In this document: positions 4,803-23,221 of the stretch, in pieces | Numbering within the stretch: the first letter of the stretch is position 1 | How the letters are laid out: each line of letters begins with the position of its first letter | Source: a virus | Lineage: Duplodnaviria; Heunggongvirae; Uroviricota; Caudoviricetes | IMG/VR virus record: IMGVR_UViG_2695420714_000020 | DNA: 38,146 nt | Strand: one strand, 5' to 3' | Notes under the pieces: generated by a model | Database searches by the model: none | The model's input: only the letters and a program-made list of their open reading frames with translations | What the model was told of the DNA's origin: nothing | Made by a program: the position numbers and the translations under genes

Positions 4803-5624
4803 ATGCACCACGGAATTCATCATTTCCATGGGACGCCTGTCTGGGGAAGTGCTGGCGACGTTCATCGTATTGCGGTGAGCGGAGCTGGCGCTTTCGTCTC
4901 CTATGTACGGCCAGATCAGATTGCGGCGTCCATTCAGCACGCTCAGGTCGTCGGCATTGATAACGGCGCATTTTCTGCATGGGTGCGTGGGCTAAAAATT
5001 AACTGGAGTGATTTTTATAAATGGCTCCTGAACTATTACCACCATCCTAAGGTCGCTTTTTTTGTCATTCCTGATGTTGTGGACGGAGGTGAACGTGACA
5101 ATGATGCCCTGATAAACGAAGTTCCGAAAATGTTCTACGGGAAGGCAACTCCCGTCTGGCATCTGCACGAGTCAATCGATCGGCTTATCGAGCTATGTCG
5201 TGAATGGCCTCGTGTCTGCTTTGGATCTTCTGGTGAATATGCGGCTATCAGAACTGCGCACTGGCATCGTCGTATGCAGGACGCTTTTGAAGCAATTTAT
5301 TGCCGACACAATTTCAAAACAGCTGTTCATGGTTTGCGCATGCTTGACGGTCGTGTGTTGGGAAATTACCCACTGGCGACTGCCGACAGTACAAATCTTG
5401 CCTGCAATGTCCCCAAATTTAATAGCAAATATCCTGAGCTGACGCGGGCTATTCAGGAGGCTGAGTATTCGCGCAATCTGACGGAAAAGGAGCTGAAAGC
5501 TGTCATTCTGAAAAACCGTTGCGCAATTTTAAAAGGTGCAATTGAAGCTGTTCGCCCACCTTCAGTTTCTGATTGGCTGTCGAATGGTTTGCAGCCTTCA
5601 CAGCTCGAACTGGAGATTGCGTAA
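4803..5624 (+). CDS. Conserved hypothetical protein coupled to dam and gpA; possible TGT/DpdA-like fold (unverified)
   Basis: GTG 4794 overlaps the dam stop (GTGA); first ATG at 4803; its stop TAA overlaps the gpA ATG (TAATG). Motifs IDNGAF and [11 protein letters not shown] resemble, from memory, the DSGGF and FDE regions of tRNA-guanine transglycosylases; no zinc-binding Cys cluster. Confidence 0.5.
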
Positions 5625-7996
5625 TGAACTACAGCTATTCCTGGAATGCTGAGAAAAAAGCAATCAATCCTTACGTAGAGACAGAAGAGCAATCTTCAGT
5701 TTCTGCGCTTTCAAACCTGATCGCTCTGTACGCTGCCGATAACGAGCAGGAACAGCTGCGCCGCGAGGCACTGAGTGATCAGGTCTGGGAGCGTTATTTC
5801 TTTAATGAATCCCGTGATCCTGTCCAGCGCGAAATGGAGCAGGATAAGCTCATTAGTCGGGCAAAGCTGGCGCATGAGCAGCAGCGTTTTAATCCAGATA
5901 TGGTCATTCTGGCGGACGTCAATGCCCAGCCTTCCCATATCAGCAAGCCGCTGATGCAACGTATTGAATACTTCAGCAGCCTGGGCAGGCCAAAGGCTTA
6001 TTCCCGCTATTTGCGTGAGACGATTAAGCCATGTCTGGAACGGCTGGAGCATGTACGCGACTGTCAGCTATCCACTTCTTTTCGCTTTATGGCAAGCCAT
6101 GAAGGGCTGGACGGCCTGCTGATCCTGCCTGAAATGAGTCAGGATCAGGTGAAACGCCTGTCCACCCTGGTAGCTGCGCATATGAGCATGTGCCTTGATG
6201 CAGCTTGTGGCGATTTGTATGTCACCGATGACGTTAAGCCAGAAGAAATCCGCAAAACATGGGAAAAGGTGGCAGCGGAAACCCTGCATCTGGATGTCAT
6301 CCCGCCTGCGTTTGAGCAACTCCGCCGGAAAAGAAACCGCCGTAAACCCGTGCCCTATGAACTCATTCCGGGTTCGCTGGCGCGTATGTTGTGCGCTGAC
6401 TGGTGGTACCGGAAATTATGGAAGATGCGTTGCGAATGGCGGGAAGAGCAGTTGCGTGCTGTCTGCCTGGTCAGCAAAAAAGCATCTCCCTATGTCAGCT
6501 ATGAAGCCGTGATGCATAAACGTGAGCAGCGCCGTAAGTCGCTGGAGTTTTTTCGTTCTCATGAACTGGTGAACGAAGACGGCGACACGCTGGACATGGA
6601 GGATGTGGTAAACGCCAGCAGCAGCAACCCTGCGCATCGCCGCAATGAGATGATGGCCTGTGTTAAAGGCCTGGAGCTTATCGCGGAAATGCGCGGTGAC
6701 TGCGCCGTTTTCTACACCATCACCTGTCCGTCACGTTTCCATTCCACGCTAAATAATGGCAGGCCCAACCCAACTTGGACAAATGCGACGGTAAGACAAA
6801 GCAGTGATTATCTGGTCGGCATGTTTGCTGCATTTCGTAAGGCGATGCACAAAGCCGGATTGCGGTGGTATGGCGTGCGGGTGGCTGAGCCGCATCATGA
6901 CGGTACAGTTCACTGGCACCTGTTGTGTTTTATGCGCAAAAAAGACCGCCGCGCCATCACTGCATTACTGCGTAAGTTTGCCATCCGTGAAGACCGCGAG
7001 GAACTGGGCAATAACACTGGGCCGCGCTTTAAGTCTGAGTTGATTAACCCGCGCAAAGGTACGCCAACAAGCTACATCGCGAAATACATCAGTAAGAACA
7101 TTGACGGGCGTGGTCTGGCTGGCGAGATCAGCAAGGAAACGGGGAAATCCCTGCGTGATAATGCTGAATACGTTAATGCCTGGGCGTCTCTGCATCGTGT
7201 TCAGCAATTCCGCTTCTTTGGCATTCCGGGGCGTCAGGCTTACCGTGAACTGCGATTGCTGGCTGGTCAGGCGGCAAGGCAACAGGGGGACAAAAAAGCA
7301 GGTGCGCGGGTACTGGATAACCCGCGCCTTGATGCCATCCTGGCTGCTGCTGATGCTGGTTGTTTTGCTACCTACATCATGAAGCAGGGCGGCGTACTGG
7401 TTCCCCGCAAATATCACCTCATCAGAACCGCTTATGAAATCAACGAAGAGCCGACCGCCTATGGCGATCACGGCATTCGTATTTATGGCATCTGGTCACC
7501 TATTGCAGAGGGCAAGATCTGCACTCATGCCGTGAAGTGGAAAATGGTTCGTAAGGCCGTTGATGTTCAGGAGGCGGCAGCCGACCAGGGCGCTTGCGCC
7601 CCTTGGACTCGTGGCAATAACTGTCCCCTTGCTGAAAATTTGAACCAACAGGAGAAAGATAAATCAGCTGATGGGGACCCCAGAACGGACATTACCAGCA
7701 TGGATGACAAGGAGTTGCACGATTACCTGCACAGTATGAACAAAAAAGAGCGCCGGGAACTGGCTGCAAGGGTACGCCTGGTGAAACCGAAACGGCGTAA
7801 AGACTACAAACAGCGAATTACAGACCATCAGAGACTGCAGCTCGTCTATGAGCTGAAGTCCAGAGGATTTGATGGTAGCGAGAAAGAGGTCGATTTACTC
7901 CTTCGCGGCGGCAGTATTCCGTCAGGAGCAGGCCTGCGTATCTTCTATCGGAACCAGCGTTTGCAAGAAGATGATCAGTGGCGGAACCTGTATTAA
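5624..7996 (+). CDS. A: Replication initiation endonuclease gpA (rolling-circle nickase)
   Basis: 790 aa from ATG 5624; P2 A-like size and position, with central region [11 protein letters not shown]...[12 protein letters not shown]. Start overlaps the stop of the upstream gene. Confidence 0.85.
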
Positions 7997-8090
7997 TTTC
8001 GCGGGTTAACAATTCGTGCTCTTAATAATACCAGGCATATCAGGCTGATGAACGTAAAAAAACGTTTTACATCAGTAAGATTATTATATA

Positions 8091-8106
8091 CTGTAAATAT
8101 AAACAG
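8091..8106. promoter_or_regulatory. LexA (SOS) box CTGTAAATATAAACAG
   Basis: Perfect CTGT-N8-ACAG palindrome 45 bp upstream of the 8151 start, overlapping a candidate -10 (TATACT 8087..8092). Confidence 0.7.
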
Positions 8107-8150
8107 TAGTTATACATACAGTATTGCGTGTGGTGTCATAGGAGGAAAGA

Positions 8151-8338
8151 TGCAGGACTATTTTTTGGAGTCTTTGAAGCTCCAGCGCATTGATTTTTTT
8201 CTTAAGCTTGTAGCGGCTAGTGAGTGTAGTGATGAAGAGAAGGGGCTGGCTCTGCAGTGGGTTTCTGAATTGACTGATGAACTCATGGCAAAAATCAGAA
8301 CCCACGAATACAACCGCTCAATGGATGTCATCAGCTGA
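8151..8338 (+). CDS. SOS-inducible small protein, candidate Tum-like antirepressor (62 aa)
   Basis: Strong ribosome-binding site AGGAGG before ATG 8151; downstream of the LexA box; located after gpA as tum is in 186. The ORF-track N-terminal extension (8048) would cover the promoter, so the shorter start is used. Confidence 0.5.
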
Positions 8339-8348
8339 GGTGACTTTT

Positions 8349-8582
8349 ATGCGCATTGAAATAATGATCGATAAAGAGCAGAAGATTAGCCAGTCTACCC
8401 TGGACGCCCTTGAATCCGAGCTTTACCGCAATCTGCGCCCCCTGTATCCCAAAACGGTAATTCGTATCCGTAAAGGTAGCTCTAACGGTGTGGAACTGAC
8501 CGGACTGCAACTGGATGAAGAAAGAAAACAAGTGATGAAAATTATGCAGAAGGTGTGGGAAGACGACAGCTGGCTGCATTAA
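8349..8582 (+). CDS. DinI-family protein (77 aa)
   Basis: MRIEIMIDKEQ...ALESELYRNL...GLQLDEERKQVMKIMQKVWEDDSWL parallels E. coli DinI (MRIEVTIAK...ETWESADDW) in length and motif order. Second gene of the LexA-boxed operon. Confidence 0.7.
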   Translation: MRIEIMIDKEQKISQSTLDALESELYRNLRPLYPKTVIRIRKGSSNGVELTGLQLDEERKQVMKIMQKVWEDDSWLH

Positions 8583-8591
8583 GAAACGTTG

Positions 8592-8619
8592 CCCCCAAGA
8601 GGATTTATCCTGTTGGGGG
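8592..8619 (+). terminator. GC-rich hairpin after the tum/dinI-like operon (CCCCCAAGAGGAT-TT-ATCCTGTTGGGGG)
   Basis: 12 of 13 bp stem immediately after the stop at 8582; weak T-tract afterwards (GAGTTTGGG). Confidence 0.4.
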
Positions 8620-9070
8620 GAGTTTGGGCAACGAGTGAAATGAGGTGTAAGGTGGGCGGTCATTTTGATAAGTGATCGTCCACTTTGTGTCAGAACCTGA
8701 TGTTTGTTGTACATTCGGACGAATAGGCGGCGTTGTTTGCTTTAAAAATAAAACAGGAACACTTTGAGAAAGTGAACAGGTGTATTTATTTGTTGCTGAT
8801 GAATGAGAGTAACTCTAATTTGGATAATTAGCTTGATAATAGGTCAGACGAAAATAATATTCCAGCACACTTTTGGTCGCAACAGGCATTAGTTAATTTT
8901 AAGTGATAAATTTTTATCCATAAATTAACACTAGTGTGTCATCTAGCGAAACCGAATCGCTTTAACTCATAACTTGAAGTTGAATCAGTGGGGTAGCAGT
9001 AGGCATGCCGGAACTGATAAACTGTGCAGAAGGCTAAACATTCATTCACTCGTGAGATAGTAGCTAAATT

Positions 9071-9937
9071 ATGCAAAGAATTATTCCTGATAAAAATTGG
9101 TGGGAAAAAGAGCGTATTAATCGTAAAGCATCATCAATATGCCCATATGCTAGTTCATACAGATGTCCTCGATACTATCAGAGTGTAGTTTTGCTCTCAA
9201 GCATCAATGTGATAGCTGGTATGGCAACTAGGAAAGAAAAAGAGTTGGGTGAATTTTGGGAAAGAACCACTTTCTCATCTTTATGTGATGAAGAAGTCCC
9301 TACAGTTACTACAAAAGAATATGGCGGCCTTGCATCAGTTAGTAATTTTTGCCCAGAAATATCATTTAGATATTTACACTACTACGCCGATTATATGTGT
9401 AAATATGTTGATGAGATAGATCAGGACACTGGCAGGCGTATTGCGGAAAAAGATAATTTAGAAAATGATTGGAAATATACATGGATGTCAGTCAATCCTA
9501 AATTTTATTTAGATTGCGATGTTTTTGAAAGTGTCAAAAATTTCAATGAAGAATTGGCTAGTGATTACTTAAAAAGATTGCACCCAAATATCGTTCAGCA
9601 AATAGATAGAATGAATAATTGCTTGGATAATAATGATCCGGCAGGTGCACTGCACGCAGCCTCTAATATTTTAGAAACTATGGCTAAGGAAATCACTCAA
9701 AACCCGAATGTGGCAAATGAGTCATTGGGTGGTTTTTTTAAACAGTTCGAAAAAATGTCAAAATTACCTAAGAATCTTATTGATGCTGTTAAAGATATTT
9801 ATGATTTACGCAACAAATTACCTACTGCTGGACACGGAAGCTTGAACAAGCCTGAATTGACTATGGTAGAAGCTATAACTATTGCGGCAATGACAAAGGC
9901 GATTTTAGAAATTGAATATCGAAGCAAAGCCATCTAA
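9071..9937 (+). CDS. Orphan accessory protein, 288 aa, unknown function
   Basis: AT-rich ORF in the accessory region after about 430 bp of AT-rich non-coding DNA containing the palindrome GATAAATTTTTATC. No motif recognised; weak ribosome-binding site. Confidence 0.55.
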   Translation: MQRIIPDKNWWEKERINRKASSICPYASSYRCPRYYQSVVLLSSINVIAGMATRKEKELGEFWERTTFSSLCDEEVPTVTTKEYGGLASVSNFCPEISFRYLHYYADYMCKYVDEIDQDTGRRIAEKDNLENDWKYTWMSVNPKFYLDCDVFESVKNFNEELASDYLKRLHPNIVQQIDRMNNCLDNNDPAGALHAASNILETMAKEITQNPNVANESLGGFFKQFEKMSKLPKNLIDAVKDIYDLRNKLPTAGHGSLNKPELTMVEAITIAAMTKAILEIEYRSKAI

Positions 9938-10186
9938 CAAACCAAATTATGTGGTTCAAATTCCCGCTACACTTCTGTGTTGCCGCCAGCGTCTACTTAT
10001 CGCTGTGAGTTCAACGGGTGATGATGCGTTAGAGATCTCTGAATCGATTGAAGTCTAAGGTTGTCAGGGCTGTAACAGCAGCCCTGTGTCATGAATGGAT
10101 TGCATATTAATTGACGAAGAACAGACTAATATCATCGATAGCTGTTTTCAAAAATAGACCAATAACAAACTGAGATGTTATCGTAT

Positions 10187-10840
10187 TCATTTCGATGATT
10201 GATCCAGATGTGTATATAACCATTGAAAGAGTTTTCTAATTTTTGTGATAGTATCTTTTAAATAATTTAAGGAGATTATTATATTATTTTCATTGTTTAA
10301 TGAAAGAGTAGGTGTTTTATCAATGATATTTTTTAAGGCTACAGCTGTGCTCATTTTTTTAATGTCTCCATTAGCATGAACTATGCAATTCCTTACTTTG
10401 TTAAACTCTGTCATGAATTGCCACTCTTGTGACAGGCCAAAGTTTATATCCATTAATTTTGTTAAATATCTTTTTGCTTTGTGGATGCCATCACCATTAA
10501 AATCGGTTACTGATATATTGGTGTTTACAATCCTTTGACATATATTGCAATAGTCGTTTAGGTTGTGCTCTAAGCATGAGTATAAAGATACCAAAGCAGA
10601 TTTATTAAAAATATTTGGTTGTATGTTAACTAAGAAATCATATTGCTCTGAATAATAGTCTTCTAAGTAATTAATATAATCGTCAGGAGCATTCTTTTTT
10701 TCATCTTCATATGCTTTTTTTAATTCCGCTAAGTTAACTCTGTTTTGGCCGCCTGCTCCTAGGATATATTTTTCGAAATCATCAATCTGCGCTTCAAGTG
10801 AATATCTTGATAGCTGTGCGAAAAGTTTGTATTTACTCAT
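10187..10840 (-). CDS. Accessory protein, 217 aa, with candidate HEPN motif (RNCIVH)
   Basis: AT-rich ORF convergent with 9071..9937. Residues 150-155 RNCIVH match the R-x4-6-H HEPN signature in its common RNxxxH form. Confidence 0.55.
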   Translation of the reverse strand: MSKYKLFAQLSRYSLEAQIDDFEKYILGAGGQNRVNLAELKKAYEDEKKNAPDDYINYLEDYYSEQYDFLVNIQPNIFNKSALVSLYSCLEHNLNDYCNICQRIVNTNISVTDFNGDGIHKAKRYLTKLMDINFGLSQEWQFMTEFNKVRNCIVHANGDIKKMSTAVALKNIIDKTPTLSLNNENNIIISLNYLKDTITKIRKLFQWLYTHLDQSSK

Positions 10841-11183
10841 CGGTATGCCATTCCTTTTTAATTATAAACCTTTGGATTAAAAGGTGCTGAAAATAGTAAC
10901 TCATTATTTTTGTTTGTAAAGGGGGTATTGTTTTTACTAGATCAAGATAAAACAATGGGAATATCCGCTTTTCGCTCACAGCGGACTTTCATCTTTGTAA
11001 ACCCGTATGATTAGCTTTTCAGCGGTCATTCAGATACGGATTTACGCTTCCCTTGGCTGTGCATGACTATGACGCATGAGATCGCATGATCGTTAGAGGA
11101 TCGTTTTTGCTGAGGCCAGCCAGAACTGGCGTGCTTTTGCTTATGTCGTGCAGGTGCATGAAAACCACTACATAAAGCGGGCA

Positions 11184-11202
11184 GGCGTGGCGGGGATACG
11201 AT
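11184..11202. other. cos-like cohesive-end site (GGCGTGGCGGGGATACGAT followed by TGCGCGCT)
   Basis: Resembles, from memory, the 19-nt cohesive ends of P2 (GGCGAGGCGGGGAAAGCAC, then TGCGCGCT) and 186 (GGCGTGGCGGGGAAAGCAT). Lies in the region between A and Q where the P2 cos is found. Confidence 0.5.
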
Positions 11203-11229
11203 TGCGCGCTAGGTATAAGTGTGTAAAAT
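11202..11229 (+). promoter_or_regulatory. Candidate promoter for the ATPase-HNH operon (TTGCGC-N16-TAAAAT)
   Basis: Sigma70-like elements about 45 bp upstream of ATG 11271, which has a GAGAGGG ribosome-binding site. Confidence 0.35.
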
Positions 11230-11270
11230 AATTCCAAAATAAATCATCCTAATGAAGTGAGAGGGTAATA

Positions 11271-12920
11271 ATGTTAGTCAAGAAAAATAAAAATTATAGT
11301 TTATATTTTTTAATTACAAATAATCAACAGATATCTGATTCTGGTAATTATATAAAAATAGTCCCATCAAGAAGCGATTGGAATGATTTTGGATATTTGA
11401 GTAGAGTCGAAATATCTATTTTTAATAAAAAAGAGTGTAAGGATATAATTTCACTGAATGGTTATATTGGTTTTTTGAATTCAGAGGAGGAACGAAATGG
11501 AAAAGCAGAACTGATAAGGCGAGTGAAGAAAAAGGAAGAATCTAATTTAAAGGATGAGGGGTTTAATGATTATTTTGTCATGCTTCAGGATATGAATAAT
11601 TATCGAAGACTAGTAAGATTTTTTGGGGTGAATGAATCCAAATATATATTAAATTTCATTAATGATGTTGTTTCTAAGAAAAGTGACGCTAGTGCAGAGA
11701 ATTTGAGGAAAAAAGCAATCTCTTCTGATATCTTTAATAAATCTTTCATTAGAGAGTCTGAGTCGTATTTTACTTTCAAAAATGCAGGAACAGTTCTTTC
11801 CGGTATTCAATATGAGGAGTTGGGTAATTTATCACAGCACATCAAGATTAGCTATTCGAATAAAGTTAATGAAGAAGATGTATCTTATGTTTTTAATTTT
11901 GATCACGAGCATGATTTACCAAAAAGAATTTCCATAATTATAGGCGAGAATGGTGTAGGAAAAAGCCAAACGCTTAGAGAAATCGCATTGGCTGCGATTA
12001 AAGGAAAGGATAATTTGGTGGCTGTAGTTGATTCTAACGGTGTGAGCATTGAAGAACGAATTCAAATTAGTAGGCTCATTGCTTTTTCTCCAACAAATGA
12101 AAGTAAGTGTTCATTTCCAACCGATAAAAGAATAAAATCATTGATATGGTACAAAAGATTGACTTTAAATCGTGAATCAAAATCCAAATTAAACTTGAAT
12201 GATTTAATAGTGCAACTAGCGAGGAGTAACGACGCTATCGGCTATAATCAAAGGTGGAATATATTTGTTGATGCACTGAGTGTTCTAAATAGTAACAACG
12301 ATTTAGTAATCAAATGTAGCGGTGAAAATTCACCATTTGTTAAATTAAATGAGCTTAATTCTCGAGGCGAAGAATCCAGACTATCATTATATTCTGAAAT
12401 TATTCTCTCTGGCGAGCCTTTGAGGCTTGTTGAAAATAAATGTTACCCTTTGAGTAGTGGGGAAATATCGTTTATTAAGTTTTGTGTACAAGTCTGTTTG
12501 TATATTGAGAATGGGACTCTTCTATTAATAGATGAGCCAGAAACACATCTCCATCCTTCATTTATTAATAAATTTATGGCATTGCTTGATAATTTATTAG
12601 AAAAGACAGGCTCTTCAGCTATCATAGCAACGCATTCGGTTTATCTTGTTCGGGAGGTTTTTAAGGAGCAAGTGACAATACTCAGAAGACGAGATGATGG
12701 GGTAATTGTTAGCGAAAAACCGAGATTGAGTACTTTTGGGGCGAATATAGGAAATATCTCATATTTTGTTTTCGGTGAGAGTGAACCAACTCAAATTTTA
12801 AATAAAGTAAAAAATAATATAATTGCAAAGAATATGTCTTGGGATGATGTTGAATCTAAATATAGCGAGGACTTATCACTTAATGTATTAACTGCGTTGA
12901 GAAATGAAATAGGTAATTGA
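11271..12920 (+). CDS. ABC-type ATPase with ~215-aa N-terminal extension (candidate defense ATPase, PtuA-like)
   Basis: 549 aa. Walker A GENGVGKS (aa 225-232), ABC signature LSSGE (394-398), Walker B LLLIDEPE (417-424), H-loop ATHS (453-456). N-terminal 215 aa have no recognisable motif. AT-rich. Confidence 0.7.
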   Translation: MLVKKNKNYSLYFLITNNQQISDSGNYIKIVPSRSDWNDFGYLSRVEISIFNKKECKDIISLNGYIGFLNSEEERNGKAELIRRVKKKEESNLKDEGFNDYFVMLQDMNNYRRLVRFFGVNESKYILNFINDVVSKKSDASAENLRKKAISSDIFNKSFIRESESYFTFKNAGTVLSGIQYEELGNLSQHIKISYSNKVNEEDVSYVFNFDHEHDLPKRISIIIGENGVGKSQTLREIALAAIKGKDNLVAVVDSNGVSIEERIQISRLIAFSPTNESKCSFPTDKRIKSLIWYKRLTLNRESKSKLNLNDLIVQLARSNDAIGYNQRWNIFVDALSVLNSNNDLVIKCSGENSPFVKLNELNSRGEESRLSLYSEIILSGEPLRLVENKCYPLSSGEISFIKFCVQVCLYIENGTLLLIDEPETHLHPSFINKFMALLDNLLEKTGSSAIIATHSVYLVREVFKEQVTILRRRDDGVIVSEKPRLSTFGANIGNISYFVFGESEPTQILNKVKNNIIAKNMSWDDVESKYSEDLSLNVLTALRNEIGN

Positions 12921-12921
12921 A

Positions 12922-13785
12922 ATGAATAAATTAAAAAGACCTGTTTTTAAAGATTATTCTGCATTTAAAAAACTATCTGCAAATAAGAGATTAAAACATC
13001 ATTCTGTTCTGAATGGACAGGATACATTTATACTTAATGCATATAGATCGTACATAAAGAATAAAGGATATCTTAATGTCAATTCTTGTGGCGTATTGAG
13101 TAACAATATTGCTGAAGCTTTGAAATATTATTATAACAATCCCGCAAAGTGTTTATCTATAATTGATGATATAAGAGCAGCTAATTCTAACTCTCTATGT
13201 CCAATGTGTGGTTCAATGCATAGCGGGACTTTGGATCATGTTTTACCCAAGGAAAACTATCCAGAATTTTCTTTATTCACTAAGAATTTGGTTCCTGCTT
13301 GCAAATGTAATACTTTCAAAAGTACTACTATAGCTAATTCTGCAGGCCATCGGATGCTGCATCCATATTTTGATAATATATTAAAACAAAGATTAATATG
13401 TGCTAATTTTTCTAAATTAGGGCGAACACCTACAATTGATGTAAAAATCATAATTGACCCAATGTCACCAGAATATAACAATGTTAAGTATCATCTTGAT
13501 AATGTTGTTATCAAGAATAATATTAAGGGGTATTTGTCTGAACAATGGGAGTCGTTTTACTTATATCCTGAGCTTGTTATTAGAGGACTGAATAAGAGTC
13601 TTTCTACTTATAGCGATGTATATGAGTTGTTGACTCGCGAGTTGTTGCTGTTGGATGAAAAACATAAAGGTAAAAATAATTGGAATTCGGTTTTTGTAGC
13701 TGGGTTAATTCGACCTGATGTGATTAGGTGGATACTCTGTGAATTACATTTAGGTAACAGAAGTCCAGACGGTCGTCTCATATGA
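12922..13785 (+). CDS. HNH-motif nuclease (candidate effector, PtuB-like)
   Basis: 287 aa. CPMCGSMHSGTLDHVLPKENYPEFSLFTKNLVPACKCN (CxxC...DH...N...CxC, aa 93-130). ATG is 1 nt after the ATPase stop, so the two genes are coupled. Confidence 0.65.
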   Translation: MNKLKRPVFKDYSAFKKLSANKRLKHHSVLNGQDTFILNAYRSYIKNKGYLNVNSCGVLSNNIAEALKYYYNNPAKCLSIIDDIRAANSNSLCPMCGSMHSGTLDHVLPKENYPEFSLFTKNLVPACKCNTFKSTTIANSAGHRMLHPYFDNILKQRLICANFSKLGRTPTIDVKIIIDPMSPEYNNVKYHLDNVVIKNNIKGYLSEQWESFYLYPELVIRGLNKSLSTYSDVYELLTRELLLLDEKHKGKNNWNSVFVAGLIRPDVIRWILCELHLGNRSPDGRLI

Positions 13786-13795
13786 TTTTTTGCAT

Positions 13796-13821
13796 CTTCA
13801 GCGTGTATCTGCACGCTGAAG
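13796..13821. other. Perfect 10-bp inverted repeat CTTCAGCGTG-N6-CACGCTGAAG between the HNH gene and portal gene
   Basis: Perfect stem with 6-nt loop between convergent gene ends; no U-tract on either strand, so not a canonical intrinsic terminator. Confidence 0.4.
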
Positions 13822-13892
13822 AAATTCATAAAAACTGCTGGCTATTAATAACTTTTTTTAGTTGTGTTAAAGAACCTCATTTAGTTATTACG

Positions 13893-14927
13893 TTAAGTAG
13901 CTAGTTTATAACTATCAAATTTAACAATGTTCTCACTTACCAATTTATTTATTTCCATCATTCTTTTTTGTAACGGTATTAACTCGTTACGTACAAACAC
14001 CAGGCTCGCCTTCTCCACATCCCCAAACCCCCCGACATTATTAGGCATAATCCCCATCATTTGCGGTGGCACACGATGCGCCGCCATCATGTCATCCCGG
14101 CTCACGTTCTTGATGTTCAGAAACTCATCCTTCGCCGCGACTTCTGACAACGGGATGATCTGAAGCCCGTCCTTTTTGCCGTTAGGCGAGTACATAAACA
14201 GATTGCGGAAGTTACCTGGTCCTTTGGCGCTTTTCATCGCATTGCGGAGGTTGTTCACATCCTCCTGGTTTTGCGCGGCATCGGTCATGTACATGATGAA
14301 GCCTGCATGACTGCCGTTAATGTAATACTTTCGGCGGAACAGCGTGGCGGACTCGTTGAGCAGGGCTGACGGAATGGCAGAAAGGTAACCTGGCAGGCCG
14401 TAGATCTCCTGGTTGATGTCCGGTTCCATCAGATGAAAAATGCTGCCTTTCGTGAACTGATACGGCTGGGTTGTCATACCGTATTGCACAAACCAGTAGG
14501 TATCCAGGTCTAACCCGCGTCGGGTGTATTTTGCCAGAGCAGGCTCAAGAGCGATGACCTCTCCGAACCGGTTTGTGCGTTTCTCCAGGTAAGCGTTACC
14601 AAATACCAGATAATCCTGCACAAAACGTGAAAAAGCCTGCTGGCTGAGCAGCGGGTGAGGGATGTAGGTACTGGTCAGAATGTTGCACTTTACTGCAATC
14701 GGGGAGCTATGATGTACGGCAGCGCGGAAGGTTCGCGCCAGTCCGTCAAAACTCACTGGCGGCTCATACCAGCGATCTGTCTGTACGCATTCCACATAGT
14801 CCAGTAGTTCACGGCGGTCCAGAACCGGAACGGGATCGCCGAAGCTGAATGCTTCGGCTGAAGCCTGGTTTTTATGCTGGATCTGTTTCGTCGACGCAGC
14901 GCGGTTTTTCTTAATCTTTCCCATCAA
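13893..14927 (-). CDS. Q: Portal protein gpQ
   Basis: 344 aa, identical in length to P2 Q; start overlaps the terminase stop; leftward late operon. Confidence 0.9.
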   Translation of the reverse strand: MMGKIKKNRAASTKQIQHKNQASAEAFSFGDPVPVLDRRELLDYVECVQTDRWYEPPVSFDGLARTFRAAVHHSSPIAVKCNILTSTYIPHPLLSQQAFSRFVQDYLVFGNAYLEKRTNRFGEVIALEPALAKYTRRGLDLDTYWFVQYGMTTQPYQFTKGSIFHLMEPDINQEIYGLPGYLSAIPSALLNESATLFRRKYYINGSHAGFIMYMTDAAQNQEDVNNLRNAMKSAKGPGNFRNLFMYSPNGKKDGLQIIPLSEVAAKDEFLNIKNVSRDDMMAAHRVPPQMMGIMPNNVGGFGDVEKASLVFVRNELIPLQKRMMEINKLVSENIVKFDSYKLAT

Positions 14928-22651: not shown

Positions 22652-23221
22652 TTACGCACTTAATAAACTTAAATAACTTTTTATGCTTTGGCAAAAAGGG
22701 AAAAGGTCTATTTTAATTTTCCAGTTTTTTTTGTTTTGAACCCCAGAAGCAATAATAGAACCATCCCAATATTTTATTCCATTTTTGCCGGTCTTTTTTG
22801 TTAACTCAAAACTTAATGCGTGAATAATTTTATTGCAGCATTCGCGTATAGAACCTTTAACATGACCATCTATAACAAAAAGTATATTTTCATGTTCTTC
22901 AAATGCTTCTTTCTCAGGTGAGTAATCTGGGTTCCACTCATGTTCACTAGTGTCTTGGAGAATTCGTAGTTTTGTACAAAGGCTAATAAGATTGTTGCTA
23001 ATGGTATATTCCAACCATCCGTTGTACGATAACTCCTCCATTTCAAATTCAGTTACTATAGAATCATCATATACTTTCTGTGTGGAATATATACGCTGTA
23101 AATAAAATTCAGATGAACAGCATAATTGCTCAATTATTCTTGCGTGTTCTTCTATAGCGTAATAATCAATTGGATGGCTCATTCTTTTACCTTTCTTCGA
23201 TTGGAATTGTATTTGTGTCAT
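22652..23221 (-). CDS. Moron: orphan 189-aa protein on the opposite strand between gpS and gpV
   Basis: AT-rich ORF antiparallel to the late operon, filling the S-V junction that is contiguous in P2. Start codon sits inside the PV activator dyad; no motif recognised. Confidence 0.55.
   Translation of the reverse strand: MTQIQFQSKKGKRMSHPIDYYAIEEHARIIEQLCCSSEFYLQRIYSTQKVYDDSIVTEFEMEELSYNGWLEYTISNNLISLCTKLRILQDTSEHEWNPDYSPEKEAFEEHENILFVIDGHVKGSIRECCNKIIHALSFELTKKTGKNGIKYWDGSIIASGVQNKKNWKIKIDLFPFCQSIKSYLSLLSA

Follow-up and report, generated by a model that had tools for sequence, protein, structure and literature searches.

A probable Septu-like ATPase-nuclease operon of candidate family PDC-M01 next to the cos site of a P2-like prophage

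We analyzed an operon of two genes carried by a P2-like prophage of E. coli, on a DNA stretch of 38,146 nucleotides from a virus of the Caudoviricetes (IMG/VR record IMGVR_UViG_2695420714_000020; this whole stretch is called the window below). The first gene (11271..12920) encodes an ABC ATPase of 549 amino acids (aa), of PDC-M01A type and distantly related to PtuA; the second (12922..13785) encodes an HNH nuclease of 287 aa, of PDC-M01B type and distantly related to PtuB. Both open reading frames (ORFs) start with ATG and, like all features of the operon given below, lie on the plus strand. The results make it likely that the pair is prophage-borne anti-phage cargo, i.e. a two-protein Septu-like ATPase-nuclease defence system of the candidate family PDC-M01, which would act by a mechanism of the PtuAB type. 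The defence reading is based on several lines of evidence: the match to PDC-M01, the invariant catalytic motifs, the conservation of the operon, its defence and mobile contexts, the fusion of homologs to DUF4062 or AbiJ_NTD3, and the swapping of cargo in the slot that the operon occupies.

Family membership was examined with the hidden Markov models (HMMs) of PADLOC. The ATPase matches PDC-M01A with E=2.4e-55 and 185.8 bits (residues 27-541 against positions 31-553 of 566), and the nuclease matches PDC-M01B with E=8.2e-34 and 115.3 bits (residues 2-264 against positions 3-263 of 280). The match is full-length and includes the N-terminal domain of the ATPase, the two genes are adjacent on the same strand, and nothing structural differs from PDC-M01: by HMM and by gene adjacency the locus is a member of this family. 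PDC-M01 also includes shorter ATPases devoid of the N-terminal domain, for example PDLC04236 (388 positions), which aligns to residues 194-540. The PDC families are 145 candidate systems obtained by "guilt-by-embedding" inside BREX, DISARM and type I restriction-modification (R-M) systems, and all 145 are described as untested by Payne et al. (bioRxiv 10.1101/2024.01.29.577857). The pair itself (WP_000960488 and WP_024199288), with the same neighbours, constitutes one row of Table S5A of Rousset et al. 2022, where it is labelled 'hypothetical ... AAA_21/AAA_15'; this arrangement was too rare for curation or testing in that study (PMC9122126). The original prediction, made from the DNA letters alone, had presented the pair as possibly a new family. 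This novelty was overstated, given the full-length membership of PDC-M01, the coverage of the N-terminal domain by a further PADLOC model (PDLC00282) and the entry in Table S5A.

The second-ranked PADLOC models of the ATPase are those of PtuA1, of which the best, PDLC00282 (520 positions, 108 bits full-length), spans the N-terminal domain. No PtuB1 model is found among the best 25 PADLOC matches of the nuclease. The best PADLOC matches of the pair are therefore not PtuA1 and PtuB1, and a genuine E. coli Septu pair, carried by a P4 satellite (Rousset Table S1B #26), behaves in the opposite way: it matches PtuA1 at 537 bits and PtuB1 at 285 bits, and its cross-matches to PDC-M01A (63 bits) and PDC-M01B (31 bits) are confined to the ATPase C-lobe and the HNH core. 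These reciprocal scores indicate that PDC-M01 and Septu are sister families. Proteins that PADLOC calls PDC-M01 are often called Septu as well. Profile alignment with hhalign to the same Septu pair gave 96% probability over 111 columns for PtuA, in the ATPase C-lobe, and 93% probability (E=3e-7) over 77 columns for PtuB, in the HNH core and the HP..D motif that follows it. Alignment is only marginal with the HNH_5-type Septu curated in the P2 hotspot (Rousset #105), which is even more distant. Structure comparison with Foldseek, using AlphaFold2 (AF2) models, gave PtuA and PtuB as the nearest solved structures to the two proteins. For the ATPase, the top 19 matches in the Protein Data Bank (PDB) are all PtuA chains (retrons Ec78 and Ec83, Septu 8EE4), with E of about 1e-8, a template modelling (TM) score of about 0.3 and 12% identity. 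When both proteins and their profiles were compared with PDB sequences, the ATPase had only generic matches in the ABC C-lobe (UvrA; PtuA at E of about 1e-3) and the nuclease had none.

Like Septu (E. coli ATCC 25922, PDB 8EE4/8EE7/8EEA; Ec-B88), the locus is a two-gene operon in which an ABC ATPase gene with all the ABC motifs directly precedes an HNH nuclease gene. The two systems have in common the HNH motifs LPK..YPE[FY]...KNL..ACK.CN...HP..D and the ATPase C-lobe and, likely, a helical C-terminal extension of the ATPase and a helical C-terminal domain of the nuclease. They differ in the position of Walker A, which lies here at residues 225-232, behind a domain of 189 residues, whereas it is found at about residues 14-43 in Septu PtuA (at about 14-37 in genuine PtuA sequences, while the catalytic lysine of Ec-B88 PtuA is K43; PMC13096335). 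The N-terminal domain of about 190 aa is absent from PtuA, and, compared with PtuB, the nuclease is extended by about 40 residues at its N-terminus and its C-terminal domain is larger. In contrast to the PtuAB of type I-A retrons (Ec78/Eco7, Ec83), no reverse transcriptase or non-coding RNA is present beside the operon, and the N-terminal domain is much larger than in retron PtuA and unrelated to it in sequence. OLD, Gabija and PARIS differ by the partner of the ATPase, which is here an HNH protein and not TOPRIM or DUF4435; weak cross-matches of the ATPase lobe to AriA, ATPase-Toprim and DUF2813 were observed. The gene logic of Septu that had been proposed for the pair is thus supported by the nearest structures and by the homology of the HNH core and C-lobe with genuine Septu. 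So is the proposal that the pair represents a divergent branch, distinguished by an additional N-terminal domain: characterised PtuA have no counterpart of this domain, and no full-length homology including it was found with characterised PtuA/PtuB. As judged from these sequence comparisons, PDC-M01 and Septu are sister branches of one ATPase-HNH superfamily, and the locus is in the PDC-M01 branch.

For each protein an alignment of 41 homologs was used for the analysis of conservation and for the AF2 model. The model of the ATPase has a predicted local distance difference test (pLDDT) value of 79.5 and a predicted TM score of 0.80. The ABC head extends over residues 190-505 (11838..12785), with strands beta1-beta3 at 190-225 followed by the P-loop, and it is aligned to PtuA by hhalign. 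Its four motifs, all named in the original prediction, which gave the residues of Walker A correctly, are invariant or near-invariant in the homologs: Walker A at G225-S232 (11943-11966), the signature LSSGE at L394-E398 (12450-12464), Walker B at L417-E424 (12519-12542) and the H-loop at A453-S456 (12627-12638). In Pfam the protein matches AAA_21/AAA_15 only, over residues 221-460 (61 bits for AAA_21, the cut-off being 27). Residues 506-549 (12786..12917) form three C-terminal helices (508-519, 524-531 and 537-548 in the model), of which W524, S536, L540 and R544 are invariant; they are a candidate counterpart of the C-terminal extension by which PtuA clamps PtuB (PMC12819146). The segment just before them, residues 486-505 (12726-12785), is the most conserved stretch of the protein: it contains TFGA..G.ISYFVFGE at 488-503 and nearly all its residues are invariant. 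It is also the sole long segment modelled at pLDDT below 50, and a similar pattern, FG....S.YF, aligns in genuine PtuA. Such strong conservation at so low a pLDDT suggests that this segment is ordered only within a complex.

The nuclease contains an HNH beta-beta-alpha-Me core with a zinc-finger motif at residues 89-151 (13186..13374), aligned to PtuB by hhalign. The residues C93xxC96, D105-H106, N122, C127xC129-N130 and H147 are all invariant in the 41 homologs, which confirms the HNH core previously placed at 93-130. The protein has no match in Pfam, where no HNH family was found at E<=0.1, and nothing was found either when its N-terminus and its C-terminal domain were scanned separately. 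The AF2 model has a pLDDT of 73.6, with values below 50 for residues 101-136 of the core and above 90 for the C-terminal domain. This last domain, residues 152-287 (13375..13782), is helical, the helical part being modelled at 185-275, and is probably the ATPase-binding domain. It had been described as an added extension of about 150 aa, but structure comparison indicates that it most likely corresponds to the helical C-terminal domain found in PtuB (PMC12819146).

The N-terminal domain of the ATPase (residues 1-189, 11271..11837) is the part which distinguishes the protein from PtuA. In the AF2 model it is a separate unit, with a beta part at residues 2-68 and a helical part at 78-176, and its pLDDT is mostly 80-90. 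The original prediction of about 215 N-terminal residues with no recognisable motif is borne out for about 190 of them, which have no match in Pfam, NCBIfam or PDB sequences, the search of PDB sequences with the profile of the domain being empty as well. Its invariant residues are P32, N38-D39-F40, Y111-R112, D132, F159, R161, K170-N171 and E182. Searched against 1.84 billion representative proteins, the profile gave 273 matches, almost all of them proteins of 530-580 aa with the domain in N-terminal position, or truncated fragments. This near-uniform architecture indicates that the domain is a hallmark of the ATPase family and is not common to other effectors. Four longer proteins carry a further N-terminal fusion, which Pfam names in three cases (DUF4062 twice, AbiJ_NTD3 once); in these homologs (P0301, P0315 and P0304) DUF4062 or AbiJ_NTD3 precedes the family-specific domain. 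DUF4062 and AbiJ_NTD3 occur in abortive-infection or NLR-like defence proteins.

We infer that the N-terminal domain acts as a sensor. It is the least conserved part of the protein, with a mean pairwise identity of 36-45% compared with 59% for ABC lobe I and 73% for lobe II, and this low conservation fits what is expected of a sensor. Retron PtuA contacts its regulator through an N-terminal extension (PMC12819146), which is a precedent for a sensing role of the larger domain found here. A stronger version of this proposal, which we consider as tentative and rather doubtful, is that the domain is a new phage-sensing or ligand-binding module and that PDC-M01 is mechanistically distinct from Septu, with another trigger and possibly another nuclease target, residues 486-505 being the switch that couples sensing to the release of the nuclease.

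The distribution of the family was analyzed by a scan of one genome per species, which gave at least 434 relatives, in Gamma-, Beta- and Alphaproteobacteria, Verrucomicrobia, Bacteroidota, Myxococcota, Elusimicrobia, Bacteriovoracaceae, Actinobacteria and a genome of the candidate phyla radiation. A nuclease gene of the same type lies immediately downstream and on the same strand in 78 of the 80 loci that were fetched, which come from many phyla, the other two being contigs that end after the ATPase gene. Most commonly, stop and start overlap by -4, -1 or +1 in these loci. Nine neighbourhoods were sampled. The contexts observed include: cargo of an integrative and conjugative element (ICE), beside a RES toxin and an integrase; a Salmonella integrase island with HipA, a McrA-like HNH protein, TraI and ArdC; an adjoining type III R-M system; and an island with GmrSD-like, GIY-YIG, T5orf172/ResIII and Eco57I/MmeI (type IIG R-M) genes. 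One contig end was uninformative. P2-like prophages of Citrobacter freundii contain a homologous operon (79% identity) in the same slot adjacent to cos, with the same cos variant 76 nt upstream. In Citrobacter L092 (GCA_051648685.1), lysis and tail genes directly follow the operon, and genes for portal, terminase and capsid are lacking. This suggests that a defective prophage, reduced by deletion, has retained the defence cassette.

The position of the operon in the prophage was then related to the cos site. A conserved cos region, 11059..11210, forms the left boundary of the cargo: it matches more than 1200 E. coli genomes and 58 records of P2-like phages, the remainder of the query does not, and homology to P2 stops at about 11210, some 8 nt to the right of cos. 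The 19-nt cohesive-end sequence GGCGTGGCGGGGATACGAT (11184..11202, plus strand) aligns with P2 cosL GGCGAGGCGGGGAAAGCAC, the flanks of P2 cosL/cosR being conserved, and is the sole match in the window. With cos placed at 11184-11202, the operon starts 68 nt to its right, on the Q side. In P2 (NC_001895), cosL occupies positions 1-19 and Q ends at 187; the 167-bp interval between them is gene-free and contains just the tQ terminator, in agreement with the original prediction, which gave this interval as free of genes. The operon is present in just 3 of 5426 complete E. coli genomes, though more than 1200 share the cos stretch. In sibling prophages with the same cos region, the cos-Q slot contains other cargo: a KAP-like P-loop NTPase (PDC-S49), a hypothetical gene with a HIRAN gene, or a RES NAD+ phosphorylase. 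The P-loop NTPase (550 aa) was considered as a possible relative of the ATPase; it is unrelated (hhalign probability 0.6%) and is the PADLOC candidate PDC-S49. In the sibling prophage L082 (NZ_CP015085), which carries it to the right of cos, the same two genes as here are found to the left of cos. Exchange thus seems to occur independently to the left and to the right of cos, which would behave like a recombination boundary.

The operon thus lies between gpA (5573..7996) and portal gene Q (13893..14927), adjacent to cos, in a place that varies among syntenic prophages. The gpA-gpQ region around cos is a defence hotspot of P2-like phages (Rousset et al. 2022, PMC9122126), and the cos-Q interval, empty in P2, is ordinary cargo space within this known hotspot. 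With P2 old and tin and other gpA-gpQ cargo, the operon has in common the cos-proximal location, the AT-rich moron character and a presumed role in the exclusion of competing phages; it differs from old and tin by its side of cos, since these two genes are on the A side.

At the junction of the two genes, ggtaatTGAaATGaat, the TGA stop of the first gene (12918-12920) is separated by a single base from the ATG of the second (12922), which is translationally coupled to it. A Shine-Dalgarno sequence, GAGAGGG (11259..11265), read directly on the sequence, is located 5 nt ahead of the ATG of the ATPase gene. GC content is 0.31-0.37 over about 8000-14000, compared with about 0.55 for the phage backbone, and this AT-rich composition marks the operon as foreign cargo. 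ORFs, junction, GC content and cos alignment together confirm the initial description of two coupled AT-rich genes between cos and gpQ. The operon is flanked by two HEPN-like genes on one side and by portal gene Q on the other. A promoter scan of the operon gave no excess of sites (26, compared with 25.2 expected in shuffled sequence), and a terminator scan gave no convincing terminator for it. A perfect inverted repeat of 10 bp, CTTCAGCGTG / CACGCTGAAG, with a loop of 6 nt, is located at 13796-13821, between the stop of the nuclease gene and the end of Q, and is absent from the list of the terminator scan; as it is preceded by a T-run and followed by an A-rich stretch, it is non-canonical as an intrinsic terminator on either strand.

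A mechanism can be proposed by analogy with PtuAB. In PtuAB, two C-terminal extensions of PtuA enclose PtuB at its helical C-terminal domain. The complex stays inactive, and the nuclease is released by a phage cue together with ATP turnover; PtuAB nicks DNA in vitro and causes cleavage of tRNA-Tyr and abortive infection in vivo. Walker and HNH residues are essential (PMC12819146; PMC13096335). In the prophage system, the ABC ATPase would oligomerise and keep the HNH nuclease inactive, its three C-terminal helices clamping the helical C-terminal domain of the nuclease. The ATPase would sense infection by a rival phage, most plausibly through its fastest-diverging, family-specific N-terminal domain. 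ATP binding or hydrolysis would then release or activate the nuclease, which would cut nucleic acid (tRNA or DNA, as in Septu and retron PtuAB). The infected cell would be arrested, and the lysogen population and the resident prophage protected.

Several points weigh against this interpretation. The clamp between ATPase and nuclease is suggested by analogy with PtuAB and by models of the monomers only. Since the HNH core is modelled at pLDDT below 50, the fold match to PtuB rests mainly on the helical parts. Charge analysis found no consistent charge signature of the N-terminal domain across the family, and this domain could serve for oligomerisation instead of sensing. The NCBIfam scores are low, with 40.9 bits for NF041760 (PtuA; cut-off 500) and 13.4 bits for TIGR02646 (PtuB family; cut-off 52.15); failure of NF041760 is expected for any stand-alone Septu, as this model is an equivalog for retron PtuA. 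One of the nine neighbourhoods is plain housekeeping, and a literature search found no paper naming these proteins or reporting a test of PDC-M01.

Other functions were considered for the pair. It might be a restriction-like complex acting directly and without abortive infection, in which the ATPase and HNH proteins recognise and cut incoming phage DNA in the manner of McrBC/type IV systems. Released PtuAB nicks plasmid DNA in vitro (PMC12819146), some homologs adjoin R-M systems, and the ATPase has a partial match to TIGR04435 ('restriction system-associated AAA family ATPase', 73.9 bits). This match is however far below the cut-off of 300 bits and limited to the ABC C-lobe, Pfam scans detected no DNA-recognition or modification-reading domain, and the characterised relatives work by abortive infection, with cleavage of tRNA-Tyr in vivo (PMC12819146; PMC13096335), so that we regard direct restriction as unlikely. 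Slightly less probable again is an addiction module of toxin-antitoxin type, which would stabilise the prophage with the nuclease as toxin and the ATPase as antitoxin and would have no primary anti-phage role. Retron-free PtuAB is toxic and has been described as part of a tripartite toxin-antitoxin system (PMC12819146), the two genes are tightly coupled in translation, and the family is carried by mobile elements, some loci having HipA and RES toxin modules. Toxin-antitoxin behaviour and abortive defence are not mutually exclusive, however, and the family was found through its embedding in BREX, DISARM and R-M systems. Moreover the slot swaps between defence candidates, and the presence of the operon in so few E. 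coli genomes argues against a general maintenance function in P2-like prophages. HNH proteins act with terminase in HK97-like phages, and the operon is 68 nt from cos and near the terminase genes, but a packaging accessory or a homing endonuclease cassette is very improbable and was rejected on distribution: the P2 interval is gene-free, only 3 genomes carry the operon compared with more than 1200 that carry the cos region, the composition indicates foreign cargo, and the family is widespread, mostly chromosomal or ICE-borne in bacteria with no P2-like context, and always paired with an ABC ATPase.

Three other ORFs of the window are candidate cargo. At 10187..10840 (minus strand), a protein of 217 aa has an Rx4H motif, RNCIVH, and a weak PADLOC match to RTasHEPN; it is near-identical to system #108 of Rousset Table S5B ('HEPN_RiboL-PSP, likely a RNAse', 29 occurrences; PMC9122126) and seems to be a defence candidate in its own right, formed by a single gene on the A side of cos. 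Convergent with this gene, the ORF at 9071..9937 (plus strand; 288 aa, WP_032317446) has a sub-threshold match to Abi_C only, over residues 227-279, and could represent a third defence candidate of this hotspot. An ORF of 189 aa at 22652..23221 (minus strand; GC 0.34), which separates the tail-completion genes from baseplate gene V, matches nothing in Pfam or PADLOC and is possibly another small cargo gene within the late operon.

The system opens no new category, since it belongs to an already catalogued candidate family and lies in a known hotspot. If it is active, it would give the first functional evidence for PDC-M01, a widespread family with at least 434 relatives in species-representative genomes. 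It would also be a case of the Septu ATPase-HNH chassis being fitted with another front-end domain, a parallel to the co-option of PtuAB by retrons via an N-terminal extension. For tests of this family, the E. coli copy and its native context offer a convenient starting point.

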